Shown here one piece after another: positions 30,249-45,953 of a stretch of 64,000 nucleotides of DNA. The translations under genes and the position numbers were made by a program. The notes beneath the pieces were generated by a model that made no database searches, was not told the origin of the DNA, and was given only the letters and a program-made list of their open reading frames with translations. The DNA comes from Naegleria gruberi (taxonomy: Eukaryota): the NCBI GenBank assembly GCA_000004985.1, contig GG738857.1; one strand, 5' to 3'. Every line of letters begins with the position of its first letter. Positions within the stretch are counted from its first letter, which is position 1.

Positions 30249-32325
30249 ATGCACAAAAAAGAACATTCTTCATTCTTCACGGTGGTGCCGAGGAGAGAAG
30301 GCGAAAAACATGATAGTAATGATGATGATGGCTCATCAACGCCAAGCAGTATCATAACAAAGCCTTCATTGTTGACCACGGCTGATGAAGCAAGTAAAAC
30401 GGAATATATTAAATTACATAGTAGAAATTGGTTGGAAGAGAAAATGTTGAAGCTGTGCTCATCGAGAGGAGCTACAATGTTCATTGTTGTAATGGGCTAT
30501 GCATTGGCTTTAATGTATGGATATGCGTCGATGAGTTGGAATGAAAATTTGATTAATATTGGAATAATTTTAGGACAAATCGTGTTGAATCAGAATGTTT
30601 TCATGTTCTTGTTTAAAGTGGATCAATTCTTGAGGATTGAAAATGGAGATAGACTAAAGATGGGATGTTTATTGATCTTATTGACAATAAGGTTCTTTTT
30701 ATTTGAAAGAAATAAGATTCTCTTTGTGCCAACCATGTTAATGTATATATTTGGAGGAAATCTTGTTTATTTGGAATCAACATTCTATGGACTCTTACCA
30801 ACGTATTATTTGTGCTCGCTCTACGTTTTGACTGGATCTTGGCGTGGTTATTTTCATTATTTGGAACATGGATTGGATAAAGAGCTAGTTGATATTTTGA
30901 TTGAGTGTTTTGGGTTGGCTTCTTGTTTATGGATTGCAACATTTTATCTTGTAACAACTACAGGATACTTGACAATCAAAGTTTCAAAACTAGAAGAAAC
31001 TAGAGCAAAATTGGAGGATGCTTTGTCGATTAGAAATACTTTCATGAGCCATATTTCACACGAATTTAGGTAAGACTTTTCTTTTATTAAGTGCTTATTA
31101 ATATGTGAAATTATTGAAACAAGATGTCCAATTCAATCAAGTATGGGATGTCTTCAATTGCTGAAAGAGACTGAATTGACAAAGAAACAACAAGAACTTG
31201 TGGATACAGTCACATATTCCAATAGTGTATCACTACTTCTTATTGAGGATATTTTGCGCCTGGTTAAAATTGAACATGGAAGAGATGATAACCTTGAATG
31301 TCAACATATTTTTGATATCGGAAGAGCTGTAGGAGTGTTGGACAAAATGGTTTGTGGATATGCACACCAATTTGGAGTCAATTTGAAATTAACGTGTGAA
31401 TCGCTTAACAATCTAGTAGTTCGATCCAGTCAGTCTCAACTACTCCAGATATTGAGTAATTTATTAACAAACGGTATCAAGGTAAGTGTTCTAATGAATC
31501 AGAAATAGGCTCACTTAGTAAAGGCCTCAAATCCAGATAGTGCAGTAGAATTAGTAGCTAACATTGTTTCAAAAACAGATAATCTGGCAGTAGTTCAATT
31601 CAAAATTATTGATCATGGCAAGGGAATACCTGAAGCTTTGATACCGACCATATTTGAGCCATTTGTTCAATTAGGAAATGTTAATGAGTCCAAGGTTCCC
31701 TCTTCTGGACTAGGATTAACAACAGTTTCTCATCTAGTAAATTCAATGAAAGGAAAAATTGAAGTCAAATCAAAGACTAATATTGGAAGTGAATTTATTG
31801 TGGAATTGCCATTTGATTTGGCATCAACGGAAGCTCAGGAAGATATAGTTCAAGATCCTATTCTAGAACTACAGTTAGCAGTGCCTCAAGAGCAATTAAA
31901 AATAGGAAGTTCTTCAGTTAGCTTGGACGGTGAAATGGACACAACTAGCATTATTGTAGCAGAAGACAATTCAGTGAATAGAAAAGTTATCTTGAAGATG
32001 TTGGAAAGTCTAGGACATAAGGCAGATGCTGTATGTGATGGTGAAGAGTTGGTTCAGCAATTCGATCCACAAAGACACAAAATTGTGCTTACTGACTTGG
32101 TAAGTTTGTTGATTCAAATTTTTTTAACATTCTGAAAAATAGAATATGCCCAACTTGAATGGAATCAAAGCAGCACAAGAATTGAGAAAAAGATTTGGAA
32201 ATGATTTCAAAATTTATCTGCTCACAGGAAATGTCATGGCTTGTGAAGAAGACTATTCTTCAATTATTGACAAGGTGGTAATCAAGCCAGTTTCTAAAAC
32301 AAATTTAAAGCATTTAATATCGTAA
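30249..32325 (+). CDS. Hybrid sensor histidine kinase with a multi-TM sensor, HisKA, HATPase_c and a receiver domain. Four exons.
   Basis: Exon 1 (30249-31069) has at least six TM helices and ends in the H-box SHISHEF+ag. Intron 31070-31123 (54 nt) restores HEFR-CPIQSSMGCLQLL, which matches the HEFRTPL consensus. Exon 2 (31124-31481) ends in the N-box LLTNGIK. Exon 3 (about 31509-32099) carries the G1/G2 boxes (IIDHGKGIPEA..., SSGLGLTTV) and the receiver start IIVAEDNSVNRKVI...VLTDL. Intron 32100-32142 is followed by exon 4 (32143-32325), NMPNLNGIKAAQEL...YLLTGNV, with stop at 32323-32325. The intron 2/3 boundary (a roughly 27-33-nt candidate at 31482-31508) is uncertain. Confidence 0.75.
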
Positions 32326-36524: not shown

Positions 36525-38045
36525 ATGATTTCGTCCACTTCTACTACACCAGACCAAATTTCTGGGACCACGGTCCCGGTCTTGAGCAAGACAGAAGTCT
36601 TTGAAGAAGCAACCAATTTTGTAACATTACTTTATACAGAGTTGAAGAAGAAACCAGAAGAAATTGATGAAAGATTGCAAATAATCAAGGCAGAGATTGA
36701 TAGGACTGGAACTTATGTTCATACCAGTGAAGAATTAACCTATGGCTGCAAGGTTGCTTGGAGAAATTCAGTGAGTTGGTAAGTTAAAAGTTTCGAATAA
36801 TGATAGTAACAAGAATTAAAGTATTGGAAAGGTTCACTGGCAAGTATTAGCCGTCCATGACAAGAGACATTGCAAAACAGAGGAAGAAATAGCTCAAGCA
36901 CTAAAGGAACATGCCAAATTTGCCTTCAATGATGGTAATGTGAGATCTAGTGTTACCCTCTTTCGTCAAGTTTCCAATCCAGATGGAAGTGATGAAATTC
37001 GTATTCACAATCCACAAATCATTCGTTATGCAGGTTATAAAAACAATGATGGAAGTGTTTTAGGTGATCCAGATCATGTTGCCTTGACTGAACATGCACT
37101 TTCTCTTGGTTGGAGGAAAGATCAACCAAAATCAAGATTTGACATTCTTCCACTCCTGATTCAAATTGGAGTTCAAGGAAAGACTAAATATTTCGATTTG
37201 GAACCTGAATACACAACTGAGGTTCATCTCGAACATCCAAAATATCCACAAACAAGTGACATGGCTTTACGTTGGCATGGATTGCCAGCTATTACCAATA
37301 TGAGATTCGAATTGGGAGGTGTTTTTTATACTGCAGCTGCATTCAATGGATGGTAAGTTTCTAAGAATTAATTGTTTGAATGAAAACAAAATATTCGAAT
37401 CAAAGGTACATGACAACTGAAATTACAAGAAACTTTTTGGATGATTTTAGATATAATCTCTTAGATGAATTTGGAAGAGTTATTGGTGTGCGGCCTGATT
37501 CAGATGCCGAATCAAAAAAGAATCCATTCTGGAAAGATATTGCCTCTGCCGAATTCAATGTCATGGTTCAACATTCATTCGATAAACAAAATGTCAAGAT
37601 GGTTGATCATCACACTGCAGGTAAACAATTTGTAAAGCATATGCAAAATGAGGAAAAGAAAGGAAGAGAATGTCCTGCACGTTACAGTTGGATTGTTCCA
37701 CCAAGTGCTGCTCACACAAATCCAGTTTTTCACACAAGGATGAAGGAAATTTGGTTGAAACCAACCATTTCTTATCAACCTGAGATTTTTGATGGAAGTT
37801 TTAGAAATGTTATGGCAAGAGGAGAGGTTTTACCTTCAGATCCTGATTGGAATGTTAAGGAAAGTGTTCCTTCCACACCAACTCAAAGGAGCAAGGCAAC
37901 CTCAAGTCAAAAATCAACGACAGCCAAATCATCCACAAAACAAGTAAGAAGTAATTCTAGTGATAGAGTTCTGGTTAAGATTTTGGCAATTCTTGTGGTC
38001 TTGTTAGCAATCTTATTGGCGTACAATTCTTCACAACACCAATAA
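36525..38045 (+). CDS. Nitric-oxide synthase oxygenase-domain protein (bacterial NOSoxy-like) with a C-terminal transmembrane anchor. Three exons: 36525-36778, 36822-37352 and 37406-38045.
   Basis: Exon 1 reads ...[24 protein letters not shown] plus tg. Intron 36779-36821 follows (GTAAGT to ttaaag). The split codon tg|t gives the heme-thiolate Cys in SCIGKVHW. Exon 2 carries IRYAGYKNNDGSVLGDP and WHGLPAITNMRFELGGVFYTAAAFNG plus tg. Intron 37353-37405 follows; tg|g gives W, and the sequence continues YMTTEITRNFLDDFRYN...DHHTAGKQFVKHMQNEE...WIVPPSAAHTNPVFH. There is no reductase (FMN/FAD/NADPH) domain. The protein ends in VLVKILAILVVLLAILLAY, a tail-anchor-like TM helix. Confidence 0.75.
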
Positions 38046-38145: not shown

Positions 38146-41100
38146 TTATCTCTTTGTTAACTTTTTTGGTGGATCAATACTCTTATCAGATTCCTTTCTC
38201 TTTCTGTTGGCAGTATTAGTCGATGGAGATGATGAAGAACTTGCAGCCCTGTTTTGATTGGTATGTTTTGGAGCTGTTGAAGAGCTTGAACTTGCTTGTC
38301 CACTTTTAACAGATTGAACATTCTTTTCAATATTAGAAATTGATGAACTTGTTGCTTTCTTTCTATTTGATGTAGGATTTGATGTAGGGGTGTTTTCAAT
38401 AATTTCTTTTACCTTCTTTTCTTTTTTCACTGGTAACTTATTCAACTCTAACTTTACAATAGGTGATGAGGATGAAGAACTTGATGCTTGTTGTTTCTTA
38501 TTTCCCTTAACTTGTGGTGATTTTTGAGTAGGAGATTTAACCTTCTTATCTGTCAATTTTTTATGTGGAAATTGTCTATTTGCATTCTTTCTTAAACCTC
38601 CACTATATTTGAAAGCATAGATTTGGAATCCACCAATACCATATAATAACATTTGTCTGATAAAGTATTCATCTGAGGAATTGTTTCCTTCCTTGAATGA
38701 TTCATGATCTTTCTTAACAACATCCTTTGATGAAATACCATCGAATAGAACCATATCTGAGACTGGATGAATTCCAATCATATTAGGACCATAGAATGTA
38801 CTGATATTACCTCTTGCAGATGAAACAAAATGAGTTGTTTTTTGTAATTTGTCAACTTCATTACTAAGGAATTTTGATTGAGCAGTTCTAACATTCCACA
38901 ATGAGACATGACCTACATGATTTCTCTTATCAAACTTTTCATTATATAGCTTCTTATACTTTGAAAGAATTTGTTTACCTTCCTTTGTTAGATGTGCCTT
39001 GGTCTCCTCAAGAATAGTCCACAATTCTCTTGGATCTTCAATGCACTTTTTTCTGAATTCTTCAAAGGTTTTAAACATTCTCAATCGATCACTATCACCT
39101 ATTTTACCACAAGTATAATGTGATCTTATCAATGGATTTTCTTCCGTGACATAGGTTAGAAATTCCTTAATTACTTCTTCTTTTTGTTGATAATCATAAC
39201 TTGAATGTAATTCAAAGTAAATGATGGCCTCTGCAAATATGAGATATCTTGCCAATGCGTTATTGTGTCGAACAAAAATAGGTTTCTTATACTCTTCAGC
39301 ATGAATGAAATTATCTTCCATGACATGATAAATTTCCAATTCGAAATGTTCTGCCAATAACATACAAAGTTTCTTCTTCTTTCCAATATTGATAAATATT
39401 TCAGTATCAATACTGACAAATACATAGTTAGGTGCCTTTTCTACCTCATTCATGGCTTCATTTAGGAATGAACGAGCCTTTTCCAAAAATGCATTTTCAA
39501 CCATGATGAAAATTAAATAATCTTGACTTCCATTTTTGGAATGTTTAATACAACAATCATGAACATGTCTCTCTAAAAAGTTTGGAGATGTTTCTTCAAA
39601 ATATTCTGGAAGAGTTGTAATGAAAATTGGAGCAATTCGTTGTCGACTATGACTCTTATTACCACCCATAGTTCCAATTAAGGCATCAGTGGAGAGCAAG
39701 GATTTAAATTTTGCCAGTTTAGTTTCCTTCAATTCCTTTTCATAGGAAACAAGAACTTGTTTTTCATTTCTATCAATTTCCATGAGGACCAGTTGACCTT
39801 TTTGATATAATTTCTTTTGTTCTTCAGATAAACCTGCATCAATACTTTCCTTTTCAACTCTTGTCAAACTAATGCTACTTTTTGGTAATTTTTGAACATT
39901 ACCAAATTTTTCACTGGGTGAAAGAACTTTTGCTCTTTTAAGCTCTCTAATGGTGTTATATTCCTTATCAGGAATAATCATACAACCCTTTCCTGATTTA
40001 CATGCAGGTGATGGATAACGATTTGAAAGACCTAAATGTTCGGCTTTAAGAGGTTTAGTTTTTTCCTTTTTCAAAAGCACTCTCATATCATCAATTAACT
40101 TGAATTTCTCAATTGCTAATTTGAGATATTCTTCAGATTCTAATTGACCTCTAATATGTAAGAGTTCATCTGCACAATTACTCAAATACTCTTTCATTGA
40201 ATTCAAAATTGAGTAAAATATATCAAAACTTCCATAATCTTCAATGCGTTCATTTGGTGAAACAAAATTCATAGAGTGGAAAATATCATCAACAATTTCA
40301 ACTAATTCTCCCTTAAAAGTATTCATTTCTTCTTCCTTAGTTGCTAAATCCTTCTTTTGTTTTGCCATTAATGAATCAATCTTCTTTTCAATAAATTCAA
40401 ACATTTGATTCTTGTACATGTCAATTCTATATCTAATTTTTCTGTTTCTTTCATAGAAATAAGTTGTAAACTCAATCCAATTATCATATTCAATTAATTG
40501 ACTTTGAATATTACAATCTAAGGTTTCGTGAGGTGAAAATGTTTCAATGGGTTCTTCACTCTGTCTCTGTTCAATATTTCTACATTTCTTTTCAGTTCTT
40601 TTAATACTTTTCATCAATGTCTTGACACATGTTGATAATTCAAAGTAAGTTTCCTTGAGAATGGTTTTAATTGCTGCTCTTGCATCTACTGCTGCCTTGA
40701 TTGGAAATTGAGATTTGTAAAGAGTTGCAATTTGTAAAGCATATCTCAATCCCTGAAAAACTAAAAAATTAGTTTCAATAGTCTTTCTCATTTCAATTAT
40801 TTCACCAAGTTGTTTGAAGAATATATTCCATCTCTCCTTATCTGTTTTATGTGGGATTGTTAAATTAGTGGCTCGATTAGCTACTGCAACAACAAAATCA
40901 TACTTTCCAAAGAAATCAACATCCTTCCTCTTGGACTCTTCAATCTTTCCAAGTTGTGAAATATTTTCATTCAAGATCAACATCGAAGAAATCACTCAAA
41001 TTACTCTTAAAATCTGTTAAATATTTTTCATGAAGTTCTGTCAATTCTTTGTATGGATTCTTCTCTTTAGCTATTGTCTGACATAGTGATGTCAAAACAA

Positions 41101-42136
41101 TGGTTGGTGGATTATCAGTATTCTTTTCAAATACCTTGTAGGTCCATAAATCAGGGACACAATCAACACCAACAATTTGTCTTACACTTTCTAAACCCTT
41201 AAGAATGACATTACAATTAGAAATAACCTCTTCAATTAACATGGAAAGAATTTCACTATTATTCTGTTCACCATAACCAGGAATGTCCCATATTGCCACT
41301 TTACCATATCTACTTTTCAAGATTTCACTATTATAACAGAGAACAAATTTGTCAACCATCAAGAGTCTTTCCTTTGATTGAAGTCTTTCCTTCTCAAAGA
41401 CTGACATTACAGCTTTGTCATCTGAAACTTGAAATTCAATTTGTAAATCTCCTTCTTGTTCAAATTTTAAAAGTTCAGCATAACATGTCTTGAGTTCACT
41501 TTGATCGAGACCACAATTAGAAACTGGATTGGATTCTGCTTTTCTAGGTAGAATACATTCTTCTTGTTCATCATTGTAATCATCATCATCTGAACTTTCT
41601 TCATTAGAACCCAATGATGGACTCTCATCAGCAGCAACATCTTGATAATCATCAAGCAATTGATCTTCATTACGATCACTAGAGAGTAAATCAGCAATTA
41701 TCGTATTATCTTCATTCTTCTTTGAGAGACGAATAATTCTATCTACGTACTTCTTAGGTGAGCAATAAACCTTTAATAGACGTAATTTATCAGAATATTT
41801 AATCTCAGTACAAAACAAAGTTTCACCTGAACCAAATTTAGAAGATGCCTTCATTGGATAATCATCTTTTCCAGATAGTATCATATTCAATGTGCTTGTT
41901 TTACCAAATCCAGGTTCTGATAATAAACCTATTGAAATTTCAGGTCCTTTTTCAATCTTTTCATAAATCTTTTCATAATTGTCAAAGGCTTCTTTCACAA
42001 ACTTGTTAGACTGATTCTGCTTTGAAGAAGTTCCAAAATCCTTGACAATTTTATCAAGAAATTGTCTCTTGATTCTCTCTTCTTTAACAACATTGACGTG
42101 GTTAATCTTTGAGTCAGCAGGTGTTTGAGGAATCAT
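38146..42136 (-). CDS. Large P-loop (TRAFAC-class-like) GTPase with an acidic insert and a roughly 570-aa conserved C-terminal domain of unknown function. This is paralogue A.
   Basis: ATG at 42136. The N-terminal ORF (42136-40970) has the Walker A motif LLSEPGFGKTSTLNMILSG and the G3-like WDIPGYGEQN. The long C-terminal ORF (to 38146) is collinear with paralogue B (FFGKYDFVV..., SHSRQRIAPIFIT, NFLERHVHDCC, NIGKKKKLCML, HVGHVSLWN, GIGGFQIYAF). The two ORFs are out of frame by +1 at about 40960-41000. This implies either a 37-nt intron (gttgat...ggaaag) or a frameshift. Confidence 0.6.
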
Positions 42137-42347: not shown

Positions 42348-45300
42348 ATGTCAACATCGCTATTGCCAAGTGCCTCCTTTGACCTATTCGATTCTGAATT
42401 ACATAATGTAATTGATGAAGAAAGGGATCGGAAACATATTTTGCAGCAATGTCTACATAAATTAAATGAAAATAATTATGTGACGAAAGCTTTTGCAAAA
42501 TATTCGAATATATTCGAAACTATTGACAAAGGACCTGAAGTTTCTGTTTGTTTATTATCAGAACCTGGATTTGGTAAAACAAGCACATTGAATATGATAC
42601 TATCTGGAAATGACAATTCTCCAATGAAGGCATCCGATAGATTAGGTTCAGGTGAAACTTTAGTCTGTACACAAATTAAATATTCGAAAGACATTCGAGT
42701 TACAAAAGTTTATTGTACAGCTGAAAAGTATGAAGAAAGAATTATGAAATTAATGAAAACAAAAGATTCAGAAGATGAACAAACATCACCAACGCCACTC
42801 ACAGATGGTTTAAGTTTAGTTTCGTCTTCAAGTTTCGAATTTCAAGACGATGATGATGATGAAGAAACTGATTGCGAAGATTCAGCATCAGATGAAGCAA
42901 ATTCACTTTTACTTCCAGAGAAATTAAATGTAGAAACTTCAAGTGTAAGATTAAGTGAAGATCATTTCGTATTTCTTAATGGAAAGGCAGATAGAAATGA
43001 ATTAGAAGAAACATTTACGTTTCAATCTGTTCATGATATTCATAACTATTTTGAAAAGGAAAGAAAAAGAGATGAATGCAATAGAGATGACATTTTAATG
43101 GTTGACAAATATATTTTATACTATCCGTGTGAATTACTTAAAAGTGAATATGGAGAAGTGATATTATGGGATATTCCTGGTTATGGTGAACAAAATTATG
43201 GTGATATTCAAGCTATGCTTGTTGAAGAAGTTGTTTCTAATTGTAATGTCATCTTAATGGCATTGACAGGTAACAGAAATATCCTATCTTTAAATTGTTC
43301 ATCTAATTTATGGAAATATAAGGCATTTGAAAAAAGAAAAGATAATCCACCTACTATTGTCTTAACTTCAAGATGTCCAATAGAAAATTCAAATCATTAT
43401 TCAGAATTAATCAAATGTCATAATTCCTATATTAGGGAATTTAAAGAAAATTTAAGTGATTTTTTCAATGTTGATTTTGAATCTAATCCAAAACCTAAAA
43501 AGAAAGAATTGAAAGAAGAAAATGAAGACGAACCTAAAATAATTGACTTTTTTGGAAAGTATGATTTTGTTGTAACAGTTTCAAATTATGCAACAAATAT
43601 TACAATACCACATTTAACGGATAAAAATAATTGGACTATATTTAAGGATGAATTTTCAAAAATAATTGAAATGAGAAAGAGAATTGAAACTGATTATTCA
43701 ATTTTTAAGGGATTGAGATATGCTTTACAAATTGTAACACTTTACAGAACTCAATTTCCTGTCAATTTTCAAAAATTATGTAAAACAGAGACAGATAAAA
43801 TTGCAGATGAAACTTTAAAAACTTTACTACAATATATTGAAACTTTGGAATCAAATATTCAAAGAGCAATTTCAAGAGGTGAAAAATTAGAGAAGAAAAT
43901 TGAAAATTCTTTCAGTTTTGGAAATGAAAATTCATTGACTGATAAAATTCAGAGAAGATTATTCGAATCACATACAAGAGATGTCATGATTGCTTACTAT
44001 AGTGAAAGAATGAAAAAAATCAGTACAAGAATTGAAATGTTCAGAATTCAATTACATTTTCTATTGGAAACTAAAATTTTAGCAGCACAAAGTCATGAAA
44101 AATGTTTTGATTTTACAAATTTTAAAAACATGTTGTCAGATCATATTGATGAGATATTCGATTCTTTAAAAGCAATTATTCCAAACGAAATGACAGATGA
44201 TTCTAGAATGAAACTTGATTCGTATCATGAATCTTTTAAATCAATGAAAGGAATTTCAGAACAATCTAAAATTTTATTGAAAACTTTAACTAAATCAGGA
44301 TTCAAAAAAATAACCAAAACAGATGATAAGGAACTTTCATTATATGAAAAAGCAGAGAGAGTGAAAAGAGATTTTAAAAAGAAGAACTTCAAGTCCTATG
44401 AAGATGAAATCAAAATTCCAAGTCTTTCTAATGCCTATATGAATCCTTCTCGTAGAACAGGTAATATTCTAATTCCACTAAAAGAATACGAAACTATTAA
44501 GGAATTGAAAGAAAATTTCATTTTACCATCAGTAGGTGAGAAATTTGAAGAAAATATTGGAAAAATAGAAAAACAATCAAAAAGTGAATTGGAATTGGTA
44601 TATCGTTCAGATGAAATTAGTGGAAATATCATTTCCTTACAAATCGACAAATCACAGAGAAGAATTACAGTTTCGTATAATGAAAGTTTGCAAAAATCAA
44701 TTCAAAGTTTTAAAAAACTATTGACCACTGATTCACTCATTGGAACTAAGGGTGGAAACAAGAGTCATAGCCGACAACGAATTGCTCCAATTTTCATTAC
44801 TGCAGTTCCAGAATATTTCAATGATTTCACTCCAAACTTTTTAGAGAGACATGTTCATGATTGTTGTGTTAAATCAGATGTCAATCATATCATTTTCATT
44901 ATGATTGAGTCAATTTATTTGGAAAAAGCTCAATCATTCCTTAATCAGAATTTAAGTTTGTTGAATAATGAATATTCAAAGAAAAAATTGAATTATGTAT
45001 TTATCAGTATTGATACTGAACTTCCTGTAAATATTGGAAAGAAGAAGAAACTTTGCATGTTGGTGGCAGAACATTTCGAATTGGAAATTTATCATGTCAT
45101 GGAAGATAACATACTTCACGTTGAGGAATATATCAAACCAATCTTTTTCAGACATAACAATGCATTGGCAAGATATCTCATCTATGCAGAGGCCATTCTC
45201 TATTTTGAACTTTATTCAAGCATGGATTACACTCAGAAAAAAGGAATTATTAAGGAATTGCATGATTTTTTCTTGGATGAACCTTTAACGAGACGATACT

Positions 45301-45953
45301 ATTTGGAAAACAAGATTTCAGATTCAGATCCACTCAGGAAATTTAACACAGATGAGAAGATTAGAGAGAAGTATATTCACGATCCGAGACAATTATTATT
45401 TGCTTTTAATTATTTGAAACCTAAACTAAATGAAGATGGATTACAAATCGTTCACCAATATGAGGTGAAATTTAATGAATTCTTTAATAGGAGAGATCAT
45501 GTAGGTCATATTTCATTGTGGAATACTCAAAGTTCTCAATCAAAATCACTGAGCTCATTTATTGACAGCACTCAAAAAACAACTCATTTTGTTTCACCTA
45601 TGAGAGGAAATATCAGTACATTTTATGGACCGAATACGAAAGGAATTCATCCAGTTTCGGATAATGTTCTATTTGATGGGATGGCAGAAACATCACCATC
45701 TCCATTGACTCCTACATCAAAAAGAAGAACTAAGTTCGATATGTTGGAATCTTTTTTATGTGGAAATAGTTTCTCTGATGATTACTTTATTAGGCAAATG
45801 TTATTGCATGGAATTGGTGGATTTCAAATTTATGCTTTTAGATATCTTGCTGGAAACAGAGCTAGAATTAAGGATCGCAAAAAGAATTCGAAACGAAAGG
45901 ATATGGAATCGATCAAAAATGTTTCCCAACAGAAAAAGAAGAAGAATAAATGA
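42348..45953 (+). CDS. Large P-loop (TRAFAC-class-like) GTPase with an acidic insert and a roughly 570-aa conserved C-terminal domain of unknown function. This is paralogue B.
   Basis: Continuous 1201-aa ORF with ATG at 42348. The Walker A motif is LLSEPGFGKTSTLNMILSG, with WDIPGYGEQN about 200 aa downstream across an Asp/Glu-rich insert. The C-terminal domain shares long identical blocks with paralogue A. Off-frame ORFs 45034..45288 and 39171..39425 are almost identical, which indicates patches of high nucleotide identity. Confidence 0.7.
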   Translation: MSTSLLPSASFDLFDSELHNVIDEERDRKHILQQCLHKLNENNYVTKAFAKYSNIFETIDKGPEVSVCLLSEPGFGKTSTLNMILSGNDNSPMKASDRLGSGETLVCTQIKYSKDIRVTKVYCTAEKYEERIMKLMKTKDSEDEQTSPTPLTDGLSLVSSSSFEFQDDDDDEETDCEDSASDEANSLLLPEKLNVETSSVRLSEDHFVFLNGKADRNELEETFTFQSVHDIHNYFEKERKRDECNRDDILMVDKYILYYPCELLKSEYGEVILWDIPGYGEQNYGDIQAMLVEEVVSNCNVILMALTGNRNILSLNCSSNLWKYKAFEKRKDNPPTIVLTSRCPIENSNHYSELIKCHNSYIREFKENLSDFFNVDFESNPKPKKKELKEENEDEPKIIDFFGKYDFVVTVSNYATNITIPHLTDKNNWTIFKDEFSKIIEMRKRIETDYSIFKGLRYALQIVTLYRTQFPVNFQKLCKTETDKIADETLKTLLQYIETLESNIQRAISRGEKLEKKIENSFSFGNENSLTDKIQRRLFESHTRDVMIAYYSERMKKISTRIEMFRIQLHFLLETKILAAQSHEKCFDFTNFKNMLSDHIDEIFDSLKAIIPNEMTDDSRMKLDSYHESFKSMKGISEQSKILLKTLTKSGFKKITKTDDKELSLYEKAERVKRDFKKKNFKSYEDEIKIPSLSNAYMNPSRRTGNILIPLKEYETIKELKENFILPSVGEKFEENIGKIEKQSKSELELVYRSDEISGNIISLQIDKSQRRITVSYNESLQKSIQSFKKLLTTDSLIGTKGGNKSHSRQRIAPIFITAVPEYFNDFTPNFLERHVHDCCVKSDVNHIIFIMIESIYLEKAQSFLNQNLSLLNNEYSKKKLNYVFISIDTELPVNIGKKKKLCMLVAEHFELEIYHVMEDNILHVEEYIKPIFFRHNNALARYLIYAEAILYFELYSSMDYTQKKGIIKELHDFFLDEPLTRRYYLENKISDSDPLRKFNTDEKIREKYIHDPRQLLFAFNYLKPKLNEDGLQIVHQYEVKFNEFFNRRDHVGHISLWNTQSSQSKSLSSFIDSTQKTTHFVSPMRGNISTFYGPNTKGIHPVSDNVLFDGMAETSPSPLTPTSKRRTKFDMLESFLCGNSFSDDYFIRQMLLHGIGGFQIYAFRYLAGNRARIKDRKKNSKRKDMESIKNVSQQKKKKNK

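Follow-up and report, generated by a model that had tools for sequence, protein, structure and literature searches.

Introduction

Does the nuclear genome of a eukaryote encode a nitric oxide synthase (NOS) that consists of the oxygenase domain only, and if so, from where was it obtained? This question is raised by a gene at positions 36525-38045 (plus strand) of a 64,000-nucleotide stretch of Naegleria gruberi DNA (assembly GCA_000004985.1, contig GG738857.1); the whole stretch is referred to here as the window. A preliminary description, made from the letters of the window, interpreted the gene as a bacterial NOS oxygenase that was acquired horizontally and domesticated as a membrane-anchored eukaryotic protein. 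NOS evolution beyond animals is patchy and disputed, and to our knowledge the electron supply of oxygenase-only NOS is understood for a few bacteria only.

The locus is probably a functional nuclear gene, the product of which is a NOS oxygenase joined to one transmembrane (TM) helix at the C-terminus through a linker of ~50 residues, and this protein would synthesize nitric oxide (NO) with electrons delivered in trans. The gene is already known, having been public since the release of the N. gruberi genome. What is new is the predicted tail anchor, the grouping in a clade of its own and the link to viruses, as described below. A full-text literature search found no paper on this Naegleria gene, on a tail-anchored NOS or on a giant-virus NOS; subscription reviews, which were outside its scope, may list the Naegleria sequence.

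Gene structure and introns

The coding region (NAEGRDRAFT_65272) runs from ATG to TAA over the whole span 36525-38045 and encodes 474 amino acids once spliced. Exon 1 (36525-36778) carries residues 1-84 and the Cys85 codon up to its second base, and its span 36588-36773 was recovered as a tblastn match to NOS proteins. Exon 2 (36822-37352) continues from the third base of the Cys85 codon to the first two bases of the Trp262 codon and contains the codon of Ile242 (37291-37293). Exon 3 (37406-38045) supplies residues 262-474 and the stop codon, with the codon of Glu267 at 37419-37421. These exons are separated by intron 1 of 43 nt (36779-36821) and intron 2 of 53 nt (37353-37405), both of which begin with GTAAGTT, end with AAAG and stand in phase 2. 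Intron 1 lies within the codon of the haem-thiolate Cys85, with TG before it and T after it, and intron 2 lies within the Trp262 codon of the FNGWYMTTEI motif.

For intron 2, a single GT-AG pair in the range restores both the frame and the conserved motif. Removal of the two introns joins three open segments into one frame of 474 codons, and when the introns are retained, translation ends after residue 85. The guanine-cytosine (GC) content is 23% in the introns versus 38% in the exons. The spliced product matches XP_002679491.1 / EFC46747.1 (UniProt D2V8T5, automatically named nitric-oxide synthase) residue for residue, and the public N. gruberi annotation uses the same splice sites. The two introns with GTAAGT donors reported in the preliminary description, including the one in the haem Cys codon, are those of the annotated gene model.

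The NOS oxygenase domain

The NOS oxygenase domain is encoded at 36588-37787 (plus strand), with both introns inside, and comprises residues 22-389. The Pfam NO_synthase profile (PF02898), proposed earlier as a check on the assignment, matched these residues with an E-value of 7.4e-143 and 476 bits against a cut-off of 22.7, and the match covers profile positions 2-360 of 362. The AlphaFold2 model has a mean predicted local distance difference test (pLDDT) score of 86.5, and residues ~20-392 form a folded NOS oxygenase domain with pLDDT above 90.

The haem-ligand motif reads AW79RNSVSC85IGK, in which Cys85 and the proximal Trp79 are kept and Lys replaces the following Arg. The substrate-binding Glu267 stands in GW262YMTTE267I and is invariant across the clade of relatives described below. 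The Val/Ile switch is Ile242 in LPAITNM, and Ile is likewise found in 71 of 89 oxygenase-only proteins. The pterin-site motif is ARY355SW357 versus ADWxW elsewhere, with the second Trp retained. Among the motif blocks quoted in the preliminary description, a block of 31 letters, IRYAGY and LGW are present, but the last block is FNGWYMTTEI and not FNGWYMGTEI. As read from the protein sequence, the gene encodes a complete and well-conserved NOS oxygenase fold, for which catalytic NO synthesis is a prediction.

The absence of the metazoan N-terminal zinc/pterin hook and of any calmodulin-binding or reductase module, both noted earlier, was borne out. Just 23 residues precede the domain; they are free of Cys and lack the CxxxxC zinc motif, which animal NOS carry ~30 residues before the first domain helix. 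A sequence search of PDB gave E-values of ~1e-95 to the oxygenase domains of nNOS, iNOS and eNOS, and the alignments to these mammalian chains begin past the zinc/hook segment. When six full-length NOS proteins (animal, myxobacterial, cyanobacterial, deltaproteobacterial and metagenomic) were used as tblastn queries, no flavodoxin, FAD or NAD module was matched in the 64-kb window, and only the three oxygenase exons were found. Downstream of the gene, a convergent open reading frame (ORF) of 949 amino acids without an assigned function (38146-40995, minus strand) begins 100 nt past the NOS stop codon (38043-38045), so there is no space for downstream reductase exons. Hook exons missed upstream or reductase exons missed downstream were considered and ruled out for the 64 kb, since tblastn matches the oxygenase exons alone.

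Linker and C-terminal helix

The folded domain is followed by a Ser/Thr/Lys-rich linker of residues 393-444 (37797-37952, plus strand), which starts just after the RGE[IV] motif specific to the clade described below and is predicted to be disordered, with pLDDT below 50. Next comes a C-terminal helix of residues 446-473 (37956-38039, plus strand), a putative tail anchor, which AlphaFold2 predicts with pLDDT of ~95. Its hydrophobic core, VLVKILAILVVLLAILLAY (residues 450-468, encoded at 37968-38024), averages 3.0 on the Kyte-Doolittle scale and ends six residues before the C-terminus. The second-best 19-residue window reaches 0.79 and lies within the folded domain, and the hydropathy profile shows neither a signal peptide nor a further hydrophobic segment. 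The predicted helix of residues 450-468 has the layout of a tail anchor, namely a single putative TM helix within ~30 residues of the C-terminus. Both the Ser/Thr-rich linker and the hydrophobic C-terminal helix of the preliminary description were recovered by these predictions. Among the clade relatives, the linker varies in length and sequence, whereas all seven members have the C-terminal helix, which was scored in five (2-8 residues from the end) and judged by eye in two, P0126 and P0431.

Residence in the Naegleria genome

The gene is a genuine eukaryotic nuclear gene and not a contaminant. The window has a GC content of ~34% throughout, the codon usage of the NOS gene correlates with that of the neighbouring genes (r 0.87), and its GC content at third codon positions (0.28) is at the top of the range of the neighbours (0.21-0.28). 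The closest homologue is C9374_007822 of N. lovaniensis, a protein of 495 amino acids with 62% identity over 97% coverage. Its locus (L001) has one intron of 134 nt at the identical point in the Cys codon (AAT TG, then GTAAGT...AG, then T ATT GG). A metagenomic Naegleria-like contig (L003) carries a relative with 69% identity that shares intron 1, at ~39 nt. The position of intron 1 is common to the three Naegleria-type genomes, and its length and sequence differ among them (43, 134 and ~39 nt). Intron 2 is absent from N. lovaniensis and L003 and was seen in N. gruberi only. The part of the earlier view that takes it as a eukaryotic gene is upheld by the shared position of intron 1 and by the host-like codon usage. 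Over 10 kb to each side of the NOS gene, neither N. lovaniensis nor L003 shares the gene order of N. gruberi.

A separate clade of NOS

A search of 5.8 billion protein clusters with a clade profile built from the relatives gave six clusters at 616-728 bits, namely the N. lovaniensis protein (P0001), P0002, P0003, P0004, P0126 and P0431, which gives a clade of seven clusters with N. gruberi's own. The next score beyond the clade was 481 bits and belonged to ordinary oxygenase-only NOS, which are bacterial wherever named or checked. Neighbour joining of 200 NOS oxygenase domains (355 columns, 100 bootstraps) gave a tree in which the clade is unrooted and received, as a whole, a bootstrap of 100. 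The three Naegleria-type sequences were grouped with a bootstrap of 100, these three together with P0004 with 82, and P0003 together with P0126 with 100.

All clade members carry the RGE[IV] motif just past the domain. In 194 NOS domains from outside the clade, 58 positions show a conservation of 90% or more, and 48 of these are kept in all clade members. An intron at the Cys codon was found in none of P0003, the P0126/P0431 lineage and P0004; therefore, either the Naegleria lineage gained intron 1 or the others lost it. Judged from these alignments, the putatively tail-anchored clade is a separate, deep NOS lineage with a bacterial-like architecture.

Relationship to bacterial and animal NOS

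The preliminary description had the protein aligning over its whole length with bacterial NOS oxygenases. It does so, but the oxygenase domains of animal NOS align equally well. Bacterial oxygenase-only NOS are about 40-48% identical to the N. gruberi protein (309-355 bits), and animal NOS are about 39-44% identical, with vertebrate NOS at 41-44% and 316-324 bits. Animal NOS reach 321-324 bits versus 309-322 bits for Bacillus NOS, and the multidomain NOS of myxobacteria and cyanobacteria show 41-48% identity and 317-329 bits. The mean identity is 42.2% to oxygenase-only proteins versus 39.1% to oxygenase-reductase proteins.

Family profiles gave a similar picture. The oxygenase-only (bacterial-type) profile scored 469 bits, the profile of a 51-member oxygenase-reductase clade 460 bits, the reductase-oxygenase type 441 bits, and the animal-anchored clade 414 bits, which was the lowest. 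Held-out control sequences favour their own group by ~13-250 bits, which indicates that the profile test can discriminate. On these scores, the bacterial-type and oxygenase-reductase profiles are tied for the N. gruberi protein.

In the neighbour-joining tree, the sister group of the clade has a bootstrap of at most 20. The N. gruberi protein falls outside the animal-anchored clade (28-29 sequences, bootstrap 69-72), which was set by named anchor sequences, as a zinc-motif regular expression matched too few. The preliminary description would have been refuted by a place inside eukaryotic full-length NOS, and with this exclusion the answer is negative for the animal clade. The part of that description which concerned a bacterial-like architecture stands. 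A bacterial source does not follow, since identities to bacterial and animal NOS are equal, the profiles tie and the sister group is poorly supported.

Comparison with known systems

The N. gruberi protein resembles the stand-alone NOS oxygenases of bacteria (bsNOS, PDB 4d3v, and those of Staphylococcus, Deinococcus and Streptomyces) in that it has neither hook nor reductase and carries Ile at the switch, and a trans electron donor is expected as for them. Unlike these enzymes, it is encoded by a nuclear eukaryotic gene with introns, has no supported place within any bacterial group, at 40-48% identity, and has the linker of ~50 residues, the predicted TM helix, the RGE[IV] motif and the substitutions R88K and W355Y. 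With nNOS, iNOS and eNOS of animals, it shares the fold and the catalytic residues, and its scores against them equal those against bacterial NOS. Unlike animal NOS, it lacks the zinc site and hook, the calmodulin helix, and the reductase that binds flavin mononucleotide (FMN), flavin adenine dinucleotide (FAD) and NADPH, it has Ile and not Val at the switch, and it stands outside the animal clade. The reductase-oxygenase NOS of Sorangium and the cyanobacterial syNOS with a globin (PDB 9q05) show comparable similarity to the N. gruberi protein, but they possess fused redox or globin modules, and it has none.

Microsomal cytochrome P450 (P450) together with NADPH-cytochrome P450 reductase (CPR) offers a functional analogy, as a haem-thiolate oxygenase is held on the membrane by a single helix. 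The P450 fold is unrelated and its anchor is N-terminal, whereas the anchor of the N. gruberi NOS would be C-terminal and its partnership with a reductase is predicted.

Proposed mode of action

As a tail-anchored protein, the N. gruberi NOS would enter its membrane after translation and keep the catalytic domain on the cytosolic side. It would dimerize as in bacterial NOS oxygenases and oxidize L-arginine to NO with electrons supplied in trans. It is reasonable to infer that a reductase is needed in trans. Bacterial NOS oxygenases use non-dedicated flavodoxins or reductases. The conserved anchor suggests that the electron partner is itself membrane-bound, and the likeliest donor would be a membrane-resident diflavin reductase (CPR), or a flavodoxin or cytochrome b5 system. 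CPR, to which the NOS reductase domain is homologous, is the obvious candidate donor. Being held on one membrane would then take the place of the covalent fusion found in animal NOS. The gene belongs to a deep separate NOS lineage that is common to Naegleria and giant-virus-like contigs, and its ultimate source may have been bacterial, viral or an old NOS of eukaryotes.

Some observations weigh against this proposal. Throughout the clade, Lys stands at residue 88, three residues past the haem Cys (CIGR to CIGK), where 98% of other NOS domains have Arg. At residue 355, in the ADWxW motif of the pterin site, the whole clade has Tyr or Ile (A[RK]YSW), where 95% of the others have Trp. These clade-wide substitutions (R88K, W355Y/I) imply that cofactor use or chemistry may differ from canonical NOS, and R88K and W355Y may alter thiolate tuning or the choice of pterin. 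In addition, neither of the two protein searches returned an orthologue from N. fowleri, although one is present in its sister species N. lovaniensis. The pathogen may have lost the gene, or its annotation may be incomplete.

Alternative explanations of origin and function

A more specific proposal can be made, namely that a hitherto undescribed, tail-anchored and reductase-less NOS lineage of Naegleria and giant viruses has moved between virus and host and works as a membrane-confined 'split NOS' with a diflavin reductase. It is put forward tentatively, at somewhat short of an even chance. The question of origin is bound up with it, and the preliminary description had considered only a bacterial route. 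It missed that the nearest relatives include genes on giant-virus-like contigs, which offer another route.

A giant-virus origin, in which the Naegleria lineage and a nucleocytoplasmic large DNA virus exchanged the gene, whichever gave it, rather than a bacterium donating it straight to the amoeba, is possible and is held with clear reservation. The closest relatives outside Naegleria are intronless genes for putatively tail-anchored NOS oxygenases on metagenomic contigs with 25-31% GC, and the C-terminal helix and the RGE[IV] motif occur in all members of the clade, viral-like or Naegleria. The clade with its bootstrap of 100 includes P0003, which is found on a contig of 6.3 kb (L002) with 26% GC and tightly packed, intronless genes. 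Its neighbours there encode a short XPG/FEN1-like nuclease, proteins of 411, 97 and 86 amino acids, and a metacaspase-like protein. Each of these neighbours has homologues no further than 3 kb from the XPG gene in 29-80 of the 80 retrieved IMG/VR loci; many of these loci bear the label GVMAG, which denotes giant-virus genome bins, and the XPG/FEN1-like nuclease is encoded in 584 IMG/VR loci. Four of the genes (411-aa, XPG/FEN1-like, 97-aa and metacaspase-like) form the block in which the NOS gene of L002 sits, and they are collinear in GVMAG-M-3300027892-73, at 56-67% identity. The contigs of the P0126/P0431 lineage (L005-L008 and L092-L093) have a GC content of 25-31% and are rich in ORFs without known relatives. 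A 510-aa neighbour in this lineage has 134 IMG/VR relatives, the best of which are in giant-virus bins at 30-42% identity. Neighbours matching IMG/VR giant-virus bins are found on two contigs, L002 and L092. Three clade members lie on intronless AT-rich contigs, two of them with giant-virus-bin neighbours, which makes virus-host exchange as plausible as direct bacterial transfer.

Against a viral origin, the viral label derives from neighbour genes on contigs of 2-8 kb, on which no capsid or polymerase gene is found, and a neighbour from L005 had no match in the IMG/VR scan. A NOS gene occurs in none of the 80 giant-virus loci that were retrieved for the surroundings of the nuclease gene. The clade NOS itself was not found in IMG/VR, where a scan with a single NOS protein returned nothing and a scan with the clade alignment returned one ordinary bacterial-type gene (L009). 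Furthermore, the unrooted clade gives no direction of transfer, as the Naegleria sequences with P0004 (82) and the viral-like sequences (100) are reciprocally separate.

The viral-like genes have the following locations. P0003 lies at L002:3214-4566, P0126 at L005:876-2108 and also on L006-L008, and P0431 at L092:2204-3439 and L093:610-1845. The L009 gene (L009:9917-11754; IMG/VR UViG 3300027857_000012, 134 kb, labelled viral) encodes an anchorless NOS oxygenase of bacterial type with 396 amino acids and is directly followed by an overlapping ORF with a globin domain.

Direct transfer from a bacterium into a heterolobosean ancestor, followed by gain of the linker, the tail anchor and the introns, is the explanation closest to the original interpretation, and we consider it rather unlikely. 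The protein has no hook, no reductase and Ile242, and the structural match spans 361 of the 362 residues of B. subtilis NOS. The top-scoring proteins outside the clade are bacterial by context, as P0005 lies in a cluster with non-ribosomal peptide synthetase (NRPS) and P450 genes and P0007 adjoins an H-NOX gene. The slightly higher identity to oxygenase-only proteins and the intronless genes of the non-Naegleria members, which fit a later gain of introns, point in the same direction. These points are offset by the lack of a supported bacterial sister group (bootstrap at most 20), by the profile scores tied with the oxygenase-reductase group, and by animal NOS scoring as high as Bacillus NOS.

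A different kind of alternative concerns function. The NOS fold may have been kept while NO production from arginine was lost, in which case the protein would be a nitrating or oxidizing haem enzyme or an NO/O2 sensor. Nitration chemistry is a known role of bacterial NOS relatives. The clade-wide changes at residues 88 and 355 agree with such a role, as do the replacement of Arg270 by Gln in the viral-like members and the position of P0005 in its NRPS/P450 cluster. The changes are conservative, from Arg to Lys and from Trp to Tyr, and the glutamate of GWYMxxE, Trp79, Cys85, Trp357 and most of the conserved positions are retained, which makes this alternative unlikely. NO synthesis by a membrane-anchored NOS oxygenase is preferred to it.

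Reduction of a full-length eukaryotic NOS, with loss of the hook and reductase and addition of a membrane anchor, is less probable still. The best representative outside the clade, P0124 (47% identity), is a hook-less protein with the order oxygenase-flavodoxin-FAD-NAD, and the 51-member oxygenase-reductase profile scores level with the bacterial-type profile. Nevertheless, the animal-anchored clade excludes the protein, no trace of a reductase was found downstream by tblastn in the 64 kb, and Ile242 at the switch and the limits of the domain are of bacterial type.

Finally, bacterial contamination or an assembly artefact, for which the bacterial-like architecture speaks and nothing else, is practically out of the question and was rejected on the two GT-AG introns that break the frame when retained, the conservation of intron 1 in N. 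lovaniensis and L003, the host-like composition and codon usage, and the flanking genes, which are eukaryotic and have introns.

Significance of the gene

A eukaryotic oxygenase-only NOS with a conserved putative anchor provides a model, open to experiment, of how NO can be produced when no reductase is fused to the oxygenase. NOS-like activity has been reported in Naegleria, and this gene could explain it. The giant-virus link suggests that viruses carry NO-producing enzymes and spread them among protists. If this is true, NO chemistry would join the host functions encoded by giant viruses, and the viral-like copies would be the first virus-encoded NOS.

Neighbouring genes and other NOS relatives

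Next to the NOS gene, a head-to-head pair of large paralogous genes without a Pfam match occupies 38146-42136 (minus strand) and 42348-45953 (plus strand). The 1201-aa ORF on the plus strand shows 45-47% identity to the overlapping minus-strand ORFs of 389 and 949 amino acids, and these two minus-strand ORFs are probably one gene with an intron or frame change. A hybrid histidine kinase/response-regulator gene (HATPase_c, Response_reg) at 30249-32135 (plus strand) has short introns with GTAAG donors that resemble those of the NOS gene.

Unusual domain combinations were also seen among the metagenomic NOS relatives. P0144 and P0038 are fusions of NOS with GGDEF (diguanylate cyclase), and P0182 is a NOS-Ras/Roc GTPase fusion of 998 amino acids. 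P0124 is a full-length NOS of 1037 amino acids with a CPR-type reductase and no zinc hook at its start. The NOS oxygenase gene of P0005 (L090:6001-7143) is surrounded by NRPS and two P450 genes in an arrangement that resembles nitration chemistry, and that of P0007 (L091:2709-3953) stands beside the H-NOX sensor gene.

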